A stretch of 64,000 nucleotides of DNA from Escherichia coli (GTDB lineage Bacteria > Pseudomonadota > Gammaproteobacteria > Enterobacterales > Enterobacteriaceae): NCBI RefSeq assembly GCF_003790525.1, contig NZ_CP033635.1; one strand, given 5' to 3'. The stretch's first letter is position 1, and the number at the start of each line of letters is the position of its first letter. Of the stretch, positions 12,312 to 21,736 are shown one piece after another. The position numbers were made by a program, and so were the translations under genes. The notes below the pieces were generated by a model. That model saw only the letters and a program-made list of their open reading frames with translations, was not told the DNA's origin and made no database searches.

Positions 12312-12992
12312 TCACCCACTGTGGTATATGCGTTGCGGTCTGCCAACTTTGCCGTGAACAATTTCAGCAATAATCAGATGGCGGCTGGCGCAATATTCAA
12401 GATAACGTCTGGCAGTGGTGCGGCTGATAGTCAGTGCCTGCGCCACCGTTTCTGCCGTATGTTGCACACCAGGCTCTTTAAACAGTTTTCGCACTGCGTT
12501 TAGCGTCAAGGGGTCAATGCCGGTCGGCAGTTCGTCTTTGGGTTCACCGCGAGCATAGGCATTAAACATCTCATCAATTTGCTTCTGGCTGGCGCTATCA
12601 ATACTTTCCAGCATATGTTTACGCTGGCGGAAACGGGTTAGCGTTTGCCCCAGCCGTTCATAGGCAATGGGCTTAATGAGATAATCAAATACACCACAAC
12701 GTACGGCTTCAGACACCGTTTCCATATCGCTGGCTGCAGTGGTAAACACCACGTCGCCGGGATAATGCGCCTGCACCAGTTCATGCAGTAAATTAATCCC
12801 TCTACCGTCAGGAAGATAGTTATCGAGCAAGATTAGCCCCGGCTTAAAACGCTCGATCATCATTCGGGCCTGCGCCAGGTTTCCCGCCAGTAATATCTGA
12901 CTGAATCCGGGAATGTGACGAATATATTCCGCATGCATCTCTGCCAGCGGCGTTTCGTCCTCAACGATCAATAGGGTTAATGGAGCTGTCAT
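12312..12992 (-). CDS. dpiA: Two-component response regulator DpiA/CitB
   Basis: 226 aa; receiver domain plus C-terminal HTH. Confidence 0.9.
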   Translation of the reverse strand: MTAPLTLLIVEDETPLAEMHAEYIRHIPGFSQILLAGNLAQARMMIERFKPGLILLDNYLPDGRGINLLHELVQAHYPGDVVFTTAASDMETVSEAVRCGVFDYLIKPIAYERLGQTLTRFRQRKHMLESIDSASQKQIDEMFNAYARGEPKDELPTGIDPLTLNAVRKLFKEPGVQHTAETVAQALTISRTTARRYLEYCASRHLIIAEIVHGKVGRPQRIYHSG

Positions 12993-14619
12993 TAGGTTTC
13001 ACTTTCGGAATATAGATTGAAAATAAGGTACCGCAGGGATCATTATCTTCGAGAGTGATAACACCACCGCAGCGCGTTACGTAGCTGGCAATCAAGTACA
13101 ACCCAATGCCATGTTCGCCGGGCTCGTCAGCACGCGTACTGACACCCTGCTCAAATATTTTGTCTCGTAGAGACTCTGGAACGCCGCAGCCCTGATCGGC
13201 GACTTCAATCACCACATCATCGCCTTCATCGCTGAGGAATAATTCAACGATCTTGTTTCCTTCATCGCTACGTAGGCTGGCTTCGAAGGCGTTATCAAGT
13301 AAATTGCCAACAATGGCTGCAAACTCGGTGCTGTCCAGTCCTGGCGGCAGTTGCGAAAGCTGACTTCCGGGGACGATGACCATTTTTAGCCCCAGTTCGC
13401 GGGCGCGCTGCACTTTACCAAAAAGCAGCCCCGCCACCTGGCGATCGGCAAACGCCTCGCGCAGGCTATCAATAAGCTGTTGCTGGGCCTGAGACTCCCC
13501 CTGCACCATCGCCAGCACGCGATCATACTCTTTCATCTGCAACAGACCATTGAGCGTCGACATCCAATTGAGATGCTCGTGTCGCAATGTGCGCAGGCTC
13601 TCGACGTATTGTTTAATTTGCGTCAGTTGCGCATTGAGGGTGGATATTTCGTCTTTACTACGAAAGCTGATAATGGCCCCCAGCAAATCATCACCAGAAC
13701 GAATAGCTTCCCGGTTGGCAATAACGCTCAGACCGTTAAAGTTCGCCACCACATCCTGACGTTTTTCATCAATCTGTTCGGTAAAGAAATCGGCGGGCCT
13801 GACCACTTCAGCAATGGGTTTACCCAACCATTGCCGTCCGGGGGAACTCAGACCCAGCATCTTTCTTGCGTTACGATTGATGGCGGTAATGTAACCATGC
13901 GGATCCACCGCAATGAGCCCTTCATAAACCGAACTAAACAGCGCCTCTTGCTGACGGACCACGCGTGCGATTTGCTTTGGCTCCATGCCCATCATCTGCC
14001 GACGGATATGCGCGGCCAGGAACCACGATAGCAACATCAGAATCCCTAACAGCACGACAAACACGCCAGCCATCGGTAATAAAAACTCAGCCCGCCAGCT
14101 ATCGATTTTACTCACCAGGTAGCCAATCGACACCACGCCGATGACTTTTCCATCGTCATCAAAGATTGGCGTTTTGGCACGCATCGCCATGCCAATTGAC
14201 CCTTTCCCGGTGATGAAGTAGCTCTCCCCTTTCTCCAGCGCGCCCGGTTTGGTGAACTGCATAGGATAACCAATTTTCTCCGGATTAGGATGGTAAAGAC
14301 GAATCGAGTGCCGATCGCCAATCACCACATAATCGAAATCAGTATCTCTTTGTAATTTGTCAGCGATGGTCGCCAGCCTCTTGTAGTCACGCGTTTTCAC
14401 TGCGCTGATGATACTGTCATTAGAAGCAATAATTTTTGCCTGATTCATTGCCATGTCGCGCACATGAAGCGTTAAATAGTCCTCAAAACTGGCTGTAAAA
14501 TATTGCGCCAGGGCTGCAATGACAAATATTGAGAACACCAGAATCAGCAAAAAGATACGCAGCGGAAATGCCAGTCTTTGGAAAAATGCAAACTGTTTAT
14601 TCTCGTTAAGCTGCAACAT
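12961..14619 (-). CDS. dpiB: Citrate-sensing histidine kinase DpiB/CitA
   Basis: 552 aa from the internal Met MLQLNENKQF; two TM segments, periplasmic PAS-like sensor, kinase domain; overlaps dpiA by 32 nt. Confidence 0.9.
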   Translation of the reverse strand: MLQLNENKQFAFFQRLAFPLRIFLLILVFSIFVIAALAQYFTASFEDYLTLHVRDMAMNQAKIIASNDSIISAVKTRDYKRLATIADKLQRDTDFDYVVIGDRHSIRLYHPNPEKIGYPMQFTKPGALEKGESYFITGKGSIGMAMRAKTPIFDDDGKVIGVVSIGYLVSKIDSWRAEFLLPMAGVFVVLLGILMLLSWFLAAHIRRQMMGMEPKQIARVVRQQEALFSSVYEGLIAVDPHGYITAINRNARKMLGLSSPGRQWLGKPIAEVVRPADFFTEQIDEKRQDVVANFNGLSVIANREAIRSGDDLLGAIISFRSKDEISTLNAQLTQIKQYVESLRTLRHEHLNWMSTLNGLLQMKEYDRVLAMVQGESQAQQQLIDSLREAFADRQVAGLLFGKVQRARELGLKMVIVPGSQLSQLPPGLDSTEFAAIVGNLLDNAFEASLRSDEGNKIVELFLSDEGDDVVIEVADQGCGVPESLRDKIFEQGVSTRADEPGEHGIGLYLIASYVTRCGGVITLEDNDPCGTLFSIYIPKVKPNDSSINPIDR

Positions 14620-14997
14620 TGTTTTCCTTGCGGGTTGTCCCGAGCCTCTTTGACGGATGTAATTAAAATGTTGAATCAAAATACATAGATATTAAATATG
14701 ATCGTGGCAAATTTTATTCATTAAATCAATTAAATCACTTAAACCTGCGGGTCATTTCGTAATTACATTAGTTAAAAAACTTAAAACCATTAAATAAATA
14801 AAAAACCACTAACTCTATGTGAAATAAATCAAAATTTCACGCCGAAATACTCCTTAGGATGTATAGCGAAAGGAGAAAAAGATATATCTCGATCACCCCC
14901 TTTCTCCCAAGTGAAAATAAAAGGTTATCAGTTTGCAACATCGAACAACATTCGTTGCAAATCGATAACAACATGCACCTTCAGGATACTATTTATT

Positions 14998-20223: not shown

Positions 20224-20272
20224 TAATTTAAGCACTTGATAAAATTGGAATATTAATTGTCGGAGAACCCGT

Positions 20273-21736
20273 ATGTCTTTAGCAAAAGATAATATATGGA
20301 AATTATTGGCGCCCCTGGTGGTGATGGGTGTCATGTTTCTTATCCCTGTACCTGACGGTATGCCGCCGCAGGCGTGGCATTACTTTGCAGTGTTTGTGGC
20401 AATGATTGTCGGCATGATCCTCGAGCCAATTCCGGCAACGGCGATCAGTTTTATTGCGGTTACTATTTGCGTTATTGGCAGTAATTACCTGCTCTTTGAT
20501 GCCAAAGAATTAGCTGACCCAGCGTTTAATGCGCAAAAACAGGCGCTGAAATGGGGGCTGGCAGGTTTCTCCAGCACCACCGTCTGGCTGGTGTTTGGCG
20601 CATTTATTTTTGCGCTGGGCTATGAAGTCACCGGTCTGGGCCGTCGTATCGCCCTTTTCCTGGTGAAATTCATGGGTAAACGCACGCTGACGCTGGGTTA
20701 CGCGATTGTCATTATCGACATTCTGCTGGCACCGTTTACACCGTCCAACACCGCGCGTACCGGGGGTACGGTTTTTCCGGTCATTAAAAACCTGCCGCCG
20801 CTGTTTAAATCATTCCCGAACGATCCGTCCGCGCGTCGTATTGGCGGCTATTTGATGTGGATGATGGTCATTAGTACCAGTCTGAGTTCGTCCATGTTTG
20901 TCACCGGTGCGGCACCAAACGTGCTGGGTCTGGAGTTCGTCAGCAAAATCGCAGGGATCCAGATTAGCTGGCTGCAATGGTTCCTGAGCTTCCTGCCGGT
21001 CGGTATTATTTTGCTGATCGTTGCTCCGTGGCTCTCCTATGTGCTGTACAAGCCGGAAGTGACTCACAGTGCCGAAGTGGCAGCATGGGCCGGTGATGAA
21101 CTGAAAACGATGGGTGCATTGAGCCGTAAAGAGTGGACCCTGATAGGTCTGGTGCTGCTGAGCTTAGGCTTATGGGTATTCGGCGGCGAAATGATCGACG
21201 CCACGGCGGTAGGTCTGCTGGCGGTTTCGCTGATGCTGGCCCTGCACGTTGTACCGTGGAAAGACATTACCCGCTACAACAGCGCCTGGAACACACTGGT
21301 CAACCTGGCAACGCTGGTTGTTATGGCGAACGGTTTGACCCGCTCTGGTTTTATCGACTGGTTCGCTAGCACCATGAGCACGCACCTGGAAGGCTTCTCA
21401 CCGAACGCAACGGTAATTGTACTGGTTCTGGTGTTCTACTTTGCACACTACCTGTTTGCCAGCCTGTCTGCGCACACCGCAACCATGCTGCCGGTTATTC
21501 TGGCCGTCGGTAAAGGTATTCCGGGCGTACCAATGGAACAACTGTGTATCCTGCTGGTGCTGTCTATCGGTATCATGGGCTGTCTGACGCCGTATGCAAC
21601 CGGTCCTGGGGTGATTATTTACGGCTGTGGCTATGTGAAATCAAAAGATTACTGGCGTCTTGGCGCAATCTTCGGGGTGATTTACATCTCTATGCTGCTG
21701 TTGGTTGGCTGGCCGATTCTCGCCATGTGGAACTAA
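20273..21736 (+). CDS. citT: Citrate:succinate antiporter
   Basis: 487 aa polytopic transporter. Confidence 0.9.
   Translation: MSLAKDNIWKLLAPLVVMGVMFLIPVPDGMPPQAWHYFAVFVAMIVGMILEPIPATAISFIAVTICVIGSNYLLFDAKELADPAFNAQKQALKWGLAGFSSTTVWLVFGAFIFALGYEVTGLGRRIALFLVKFMGKRTLTLGYAIVIIDILLAPFTPSNTARTGGTVFPVIKNLPPLFKSFPNDPSARRIGGYLMWMMVISTSLSSSMFVTGAAPNVLGLEFVSKIAGIQISWLQWFLSFLPVGIILLIVAPWLSYVLYKPEVTHSAEVAAWAGDELKTMGALSRKEWTLIGLVLLSLGLWVFGGEMIDATAVGLLAVSLMLALHVVPWKDITRYNSAWNTLVNLATLVVMANGLTRSGFIDWFASTMSTHLEGFSPNATVIVLVLVFYFAHYLFASLSAHTATMLPVILAVGKGIPGVPMEQLCILLVLSIGIMGCLTPYATGPGVIIYGCGYVKSKDYWRLGAIFGVIYISMLLLVGWPILAMWN

Follow-up and report, generated by a model that had tools for sequence, protein, structure and literature searches.

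A canonical locus I citrate fermentation cluster in Escherichia coli, and the species-wide absence of oadGAB

Two types of citrate fermentation locus have been described in E. coli and its relatives. Locus I, which comprises citAB and citCDEFXGT, is flanked by dcuC and rna in both E. coli K-12 and Salmonella LT2 (Chen et al., 2009; PMC2735749). Locus II, which comprises citS-oadGAB-citAB and citC2D2E2F2(X2)G2, lies between rihC and dapB in K. pneumoniae and Salmonella; these two flanking genes are adjacent in E. coli K-12, and E. coli that has received the 13-kb Klebsiella island is able to grow anaerobically in artificial urine medium with citrate (PMC2735749). Anaerobic use of citrate by E. 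coli requires a co-substrate (Lütgens and Gottschalk, 1980) and CitT has a citrate/succinate role (Pos et al., 1998), in both cases as summarised in PMC6385356. Here we analyse a 64,000-nt (64-kb) stretch of E. coli DNA (contig NZ_CP033635.1), referred to throughout as the window, in which the region 12961-21736 is almost certainly the canonical E. coli locus I citrate fermentation cluster, without oadGAB and encoding a co-substrate-dependent pathway. Descriptions of the locus, of its enzymes and regulation, and of the missing oxaloacetate decarboxylase already exist, in work going back to the 1980s and 1990s.

An earlier note on the window, made from the sequence alone, had placed dpiBA divergent from citCDEFXG-citT, and the list of open reading frames (ORFs), the annotation and matches to NCBIfam models all bear out these gene identities and this layout. 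dpiBA is on the minus strand and citC-D-E-F-X-G-T on the plus strand, with one common control region, and the cluster sits between dcuC and rna on the chromosome (Table 1). All nine dpi/cit products, together with DcuC, score above the curated cut-off of the NCBIfam family expected for them, most of them at equivalog level and end to end; seven of the nine cover all or nearly all of their models, and the other two, CitF and CitT, are matched over almost their whole length. The proteins are 552 (DpiB), 226 (DpiA), 352 (CitC), 98 (CitD), 302 (CitE), 510 (CitF), 183 (CitX), 292 (CitG) and 487 (CitT) amino acids (aa) long. Gene coordinates come from the ORF list and from the Prokaryotic Genome Annotation Pipeline (PGAP) annotation of SMS-3-5, whose record is near-identical (locus offset -1040). 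Between 11000 and 24000, the ORF list has minus-strand frames at 12312-12992 and 12961-14679, and seven plus-strand frames spanning 14911-21736; the mechanical dpiB frame extends to a TTG at 14679, and the ATG at 14619 is the start backed by both the NCBIfam model and PGAP. The span of 12961-21736 given in the earlier note does cover dpiB to citT, but it starts at the dpiB stop codon and so omits most of dpiA (12312-12960). Near its N-terminus, CitD has a serine at position 14, within LESGD, the established attachment site of the prosthetic group.

The window contains no oadGAB-like genes, as the earlier note had held. CitS, OadG, OadA and OadB of K. pneumoniae and of an E. fergusonii-type island have no relative in the 64 kb (tblastn, best E = 0.11; for CitS alone, best E = 1.1), neither of the annotation tables covering the window lists an oad gene, and the transporter at the cit locus is the DASS-family CitT, not a 2HCT (PF03390) CitS. 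An OadB-type sequence was used as a probe only, and our conclusions rest on the database sequences and contigs retrieved afterwards; the probe belongs to PF03977 (Pfam, E = 2.7e-156) and is 99% identical to the Salmonella OadB cluster, 93% to K. pneumoniae OadB and 91% to E. fergusonii OadB. In the retrieved contigs (K. pneumoniae and E. fergusonii-type), the island begins next to dapB with citG(X)FEDC, continues divergently with citS, oadG, oadA, oadB, citA and citB, and is followed further on by rihC and ispH.

The earlier note had proposed a genome-wide search, and had allowed that oad genes might adjoin the locus outside the window. We ran this search as a blastn comparison (word size 11) of a 3,351-bp oadGAB segment from the E. 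fergusonii-type island against 28 Gb of E. coli sequence, the SMS-3-5 record included; there was no match in any of the 20,395 records, which contain 5,426 complete E. coli genomes. The dapB and rihC flanks of the island, joined into a single query that served as both a positive control and an empty-site test, aligned as one uninterrupted stretch in 5,425 of these genomes. Given the missing oadGAB match and the contiguous flanks, E. coli as a species is, as judged from these alignments, without the locus II island, and the dapB-rihC site where it would insert is vacant. The absence of oadGAB and the vacancy between rihC and dapB thus now hold over 5,426 complete genomes rather than for K-12 alone, which fits citrate-negativity as a stable trait of E. 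coli. We also searched 100,044 species genomes for CitE, which yielded 80 loci with 10-kb flanks. Within these flanks there was no OadB relative and no protein with an AMKM biotin motif, and an ORF-size heuristic for oadA-oadB pairs found none; an oad gene lay within 10 kb at one of the 80 loci, as an oadG-like match at the end of a K. spallanzanii contig. We therefore conclude that orthologues of locus I are, in general, not accompanied by oad genes.

We regard it as very unlikely that this genome carries an oxaloacetate decarboxylase elsewhere, or one too divergent to be recognised, such that citrate could be fermented without a co-substrate. The species-wide search was at the nucleotide level only, and K. 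pneumoniae has as many as three oad clusters in different places (PMC2735749), so oad genes need not adjoin cit genes; against this, the E. coli sequence gave no match, however short, even though the OadB proteins of enterobacteria share 87-99% identity, and among the best 120 OadB relatives in a set of 5.8 billion proteins the sole Escherichia name was E. fergusonii. The physiology cited in PMC6385356, in which E. coli needs a co-substrate, argues the same way. The missing oxaloacetate decarboxylase is consistent with this need, and it is the published physiology, rather than the sequence, that connects the two.

The locus is also intact and widely conserved. The region 12961-21736 is present in 5,422 of the 5,426 complete E. 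coli genomes (megablast), and 5,421 of the 5,424 matching records (5,422/5,426 genomes) have it at 95-100% DNA identity; in SMS-3-5 and nine other strains among the matches listed, all 8.8 kb are 100% identical to the window. This high identity across E. coli indicates purifying selection. Over the whole window, SMS-3-5 differs by 5 single-nucleotide polymorphisms and two insertion sequence (IS) differences, all of them outside the cit locus. Decay of the locus into a remnant with pseudogenes or altered starts might be suspected from the classical scoring of E. coli as citrate-negative, and from nearby mobile elements that differ among close strains (an IS186-like element in the window and an IS5-family element in SMS-3-5). 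However, the nine reading frames are intact, with no frameshift or premature stop seen in the cit genes, no IS lies inside the locus, and the identity just described is kept in nearly every record; we consider such decay highly improbable.

The overlaps reported in the earlier note, of 32, 4 and 26 nt, are confirmed by reading the junctions directly in the sequence. dpiA starts with an ATG at 12992 and the TGA of dpiB ends at 12961, giving an overlap of 32 nt. citD and citE overlap by 4 nt in a common ATGA at 16364-16367, with GGAGGA 6 nt upstream of the citE start. citG starts with an ATG at 19345 and the TAA of citX ends at 19370; the resulting overlap of 26 nt hinges on the annotated citG start, since an in-frame ATG at 19351 would make it 20 nt. 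The remaining genes are separated by short spacers (citC/citD, 14 nt; citE/citF, 10 nt; citF/citX, 3 nt; citG/citT, 49 nt). The ATG of dpiA has no recognisable Shine-Dalgarno sequence, and the citG start has a GGAGG 12 nt upstream, which is poor spacing.

Translational coupling through the dpi/cit overlaps is plausible from this arrangement, and the overlaps and short spacers, in themselves ordinary operon packing, probably aid co-translation of partner proteins, the kinase with its regulator and CitX with CitG. A stronger version, which we put forward tentatively, is that the dpiB/dpiA (32 nt) and citX/citG (14-29 nt) overlaps have been selected because translation of the downstream gene strictly needs ribosomes finishing the upstream gene. 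If so, strict coupling would fix the kinase:regulator and CitX:CitG ratios, a modest mechanistic addition to a known operon. The dpiB/dpiA overlap is exactly 32 nt in 28 of 48 loci, from Escherichia, Citrobacter, Salmonella, Hafnia, Atlantibacter, Buttiauxella and Pluralibacter; the 4-nt citD/citE overlap recurs in 43 of 81 loci; and an estimated citX/citG overlap of 14-29 nt is found in about 59 of 66 related loci. It is also possible, if not our expectation, that the overlaps are incidental, arising from start-codon choice or genome compaction, with no role in expression and no translational coupling. Overlaps are found too in operons of the window that are unrelated to the cit locus, namely ybdNM, ybdZ-entF, fepCGD and entBA (ybdN/ybdM, 28 nt; ybdZ/entF, fepC/fepG and fepG/fepD, 4 nt; entB/entA, 1 nt), so those of cit/dpi are not beyond what operons normally have. 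Similarly, the length of the citX/citG overlap differs among relatives (-14, -20, -23, -26 and -29), and at the citC/citD junction Escherichia has a 14-nt spacer in place of the 4-nt overlap seen in 59 of 76 relatives, from which it follows that the type of junction can change without obvious harm. On the other hand, incidental overlaps would not readily account for the recurrence of exactly 32 nt at dpiB/dpiA, or for some citX/citG overlap in nearly every locus, and the lack of a recognisable Shine-Dalgarno sequence at dpiA suggests dependence on ribosomes translating dpiB.

Some additional observations concern these junctions. The Escherichia citC/citD spacer, at 16057-16070, contains its own AGGTGA Shine-Dalgarno sequence, and this junction is a small lineage-specific change in Escherichia. 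At three Citrobacter loci, citX and citG overlap by an estimated length of about 180 nt, a value that may reflect an artefact of start-codon placement.

Nothing speaks against our overall reading of the locus and its junctions, although four qualifications go with it. A search at the DNA level would miss oad clusters below about 65-70% nucleotide identity. Soluble E. coli enzymes with an oxaloacetate-decarboxylating side activity exist, such that absence of oadGAB does not equate to absence of the activity. The cross-species junction lengths are estimates, many starts having been placed by a start-codon heuristic. Lastly, the spacing of the citG GGAGG and the lack of a clear Shine-Dalgarno sequence at dpiA are compatible with coupling, but are not proof of it.

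We propose that the locus works as a co-substrate-dependent pathway, whose steps are taken from established biochemistry; the contributions of our analysis are the gene identities, the intact frames, the operon boundaries, the conserved blocks and the absence of citS/oadGAB. In the absence of oxygen, DpiB (CitA) would sense external citrate and phosphorylate DpiA (CitB), and DpiA~P would then activate the divergent dpiBA and citCDEFXGT promoters. CitT would bring citrate in and take succinate out. CitG would make triphosphoribosyl-dephospho-CoA, CitX would put the prosthetic group on Ser14 of CitD, and CitC would acetylate the thiol of this group to give the active enzyme, such that citrate lyase (CitD/E/F) could split citrate into acetate and oxaloacetate. 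Because E. coli has no Na+-pumping oadGAB (or CitS carrier), the oxaloacetate would not be convertible to pyruvate; instead, it would be reduced by way of malate and fumarate, at the expense of reducing equivalents that a co-substrate such as glucose or glycerol supplies, and the resulting succinate would leave the cell via CitT.

Table 1. Positions in the window of the locus I genes, their flanking genes and associated elements.
Feature	Position	Strand	Basis
dcuC, anaerobic C4-dicarboxylate carrier	10886-12271	+	NCBIfam NF007937 equivalog, 890 bits (cut-off 513); PGAP; left flank of locus I in PMC2735749
Terminator-like hairpin	12280-12302	+	8-pair stem, 7 G-C, T-rich tail; pattern match, consensus scan
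dpiA (citB), response regulator	12312-12992	-	NF007467 equivalog, 520 bits (cut-off 264), full length 1-226
dpiB (citA), citrate-sensing histidine kinase	12961-14619	-	NF011627 equivalog, 1227 bits (cut-off 656), 1-552/552
Divergent A/T-rich dpiB-citC control region, 378 nt	14620-14997	.	Sequence, repeats, alignment
citC, [citrate (pro-3S)-lyase] ligase	14998-16056	+	TIGR00124 equivalog, 593 bits (cut-off 262)
citD, citrate lyase acyl carrier protein (ACP; gamma subunit)	16071-16367	+	NF009726 / TIGR01608
citE, citrate lyase beta subunit (citryl-ACP oxaloacetate-lyase)	16364-17272	+	TIGR01588, 452 bits (cut-off 443)
citF, citrate lyase alpha subunit (citrate:acetyl-ACP transferase)	17283-18815	+	TIGR01584, 814 bits (cut-off 501)
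citX, holo-ACP synthase, loads the prosthetic group onto apo-CitD	18819-19370	+	NF002383 / TIGR03124
citG, triphosphoribosyl-dephospho-CoA synthase	19345-20223	+	NF007503 equivalog, 644 bits (cut-off 477), 1-292/292
citT, citrate/succinate antiporter (DASS family)	20273-21736	+	TIGR00785 DASS, 565 bits; PGAP name CitT
Strong intrinsic-terminator-like hairpin, closes the citC-citT operon	21768-21795	+	11-pair stem, 9 G-C, TTTTTTAT tail
rna (RNase I), right flank of locus I	21850-22656	+	PGAP; flank named in PMC2735749
rnk	22886-23296	+	SMS-3-5 annotation

The control region between dpiB and citC was aligned with its counterparts, in an alignment of 14 intergenic regions that represents at least 10 genera. 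Three blocks are kept across genera: ATTAAATCAATTAAATCA at 14720-14737, TTAAAAAACTTAAAACCATTAAA at 14772-14794, and a CRP-like TGTGAAATAAATCAAA at 14818-14833. More broadly, the stretch 14700-14865 contains blocks common to genera from Escherichia through Edwardsiella and Pluralibacter (GATCGT..CA.ATT, ATTAAATCAATTAAA, AATTAAAAAACTTAAAACCATTAAA, TGTGAAATAAATCAAA and AATACTCCTTA.GAT), which are likely candidates for DpiA/CitB sites, CRP sites and promoter elements. Judged by analogy with regulation in K. pneumoniae (summarised in PMC2735749), the ATTAAATCAATTAAA and TTAAAAAACTTAAAACCATTAAA repeats are likely to represent putative DpiA/CitB sites, and TGTGAAATAAATCAAA a putative CRP site. A simple sigma-70 scan found no promoter in 14620-14997, a scan that is uninformative for an activator-dependent promoter; overall, it found fewer sites than in shuffled sequences. 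Just upstream of the citC start there is a 46-nt near-perfect palindrome, at 14924-14969 (GTTATCAGTTTGCAAC ... GTTGCAAATCGATAAC, with arms 88% complementary). We dropped the palindrome as a candidate operator or RNA element, since it occurs in Escherichia only and its right arm is not conserved outside this genus. A further gene encoding a regulator, citR (ybdO; LysR-type), lies at 27781-28683 on the plus strand, about 6 kb downstream of citT, and is followed by ybdNM. Deletion of citR in BW25113 raised expression of ybdNM and citCDEF, and chromatin immunoprecipitation with exonuclease digestion (ChIP-exo) found CitR binding solely at its own promoter (PMC9068703); CitR may be a further regulator of the cit locus.

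The hairpin downstream of dcuC lies in the 40-nt gap between the convergent dcuC and dpiA, and a consensus scan found no site within citC-citT comparable to the terminator downstream of citT. Two long antisense ORFs, opposite citF (17457-18851, minus strand, 464 aa) and citE (16454-17281, minus strand, 275 aa), were set aside as shadow ORFs because relatives do not share the full stop-free run on the strand facing citF; there it spans 259 codons in E. albertii, about 100-260 in Citrobacter and about 40-260 in most other genera. An Rfam scan found no RNA family inside the cit locus. Its matches in the window, both outside the locus, are the rnk leader (RF01771, 125 bits, 22732-22840, plus strand), upstream of rnk, and a cspA-type thermoregulator (RF01766, 136 bits, 9305-9753, minus strand), over cspE and its 5' untranslated region. 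The citT-rna-rnk stretch is reportedly where the promoter-capture duplication of the Lenski Cit+ lineage occurred.

The differences from SMS-3-5 show that the window derives from a near relative of that strain rather than from the strain itself. pagP (about 9737-10297, minus strand) is intact in the window, and the SMS-3-5 copy holds a 1.2-kb IS5-family (ISKpn26-like) element, with its junction at 10221-10224 of the window. Conversely, a 1,336-bp insertion at 55795-57130, adjoining hokE, is absent from SMS-3-5; it contains one 316-aa ORF (56010-56960), has 38-nt terminal inverted repeats (including CATAAGCGCTAACTTAAGGGTTG), and is bordered by a 12-bp direct duplication, GGGATTGCTCCC, at 55783-55794 and 57131-57142. 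This insertion looks like IS186.

The species-wide comparison also returned matches labelled as plasmids. Most of these were discarded as mislabelled chromosomes or pieces of chromosome (records of 0.1-4.9 Mb, about 97% identity), leaving one true plasmid. This is NZ_LR890350.1, a conjugative plasmid of type IncHI1A, 300 kb long, whose E. coli host was isolated from a rectal swab, in which an IS26-bracketed segment (93133-119922) carries dpiAB-citCDEFXGT-rna-rnk-uspG. The segment is 80% identical to the locus in the window, has the same overlaps and contains no oad genes. It looks to be derived from Citrobacter, as judged from protein accessions, and gives E. coli a further copy of locus I, one that is mobile.

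Compared with known systems, the cluster in the window is closest to locus I of E. coli K-12 (b0612-b0620), with which it shares gene content, order, orientation and the flanking genes dcuC, rna and rnk; nothing functional differs, and the allele in the window is the SMS-3-5 (non-K-12) variant. Locus I of Salmonella enterica LT2 (STM0617-STM0627 region) has the same architecture between dcuC and rna, and the dcuC/rna flanks are seen at Citrobacter, Salmonella and Buttiauxella loci as well. In the S. enterica diarizonae/arizonae loci, CitE is 95% and CitT 97% identical to the proteins in the window, and the 26-nt citX/citG overlap is shared; at dpiB/dpiA, diarizonae retains the 32-nt overlap, and the corresponding value in arizonae is estimated at -4. 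Salmonella differs in having a 4-nt citC/citD overlap in place of the 14-nt spacer, and is able to ferment citrate alone because locus II, with citS-oadGAB, is also present. Across most related loci CitT is 81-98% identical to that in the window, and in some it is absent or substituted by a DASS transporter with about 35% identity. In Providencia and Moellerella, where citT is replaced by such a transporter, the replacement gene lies 244-392 nt downstream of citG.

The comparison with the K. pneumoniae 13-kb island and Salmonella locus II is one of shared enzymes in a different setting. These loci have the same lyase and accessory genes and a divergent CitA/CitB pair, and in the locus II islands that we retrieved the called citD/citE genes overlap by 4 nt and citA/citB by 8 nt. 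However, locus II is inserted between rihC and dapB rather than between dcuC and rna, and it carries the Na+-dependent CitS (2HCT) in place of CitT, in addition to oadGAB, where the locus in the window has neither. The locus II proteins are 41-74% identical to those in the window (CitA, 42%; CitB, 48-50%). For CitE, the identity is 62-65% in locus II and 76-100% in the locus I orthologues of 80 other species, a gap from which we conclude that the two types of locus are clearly paralogous.

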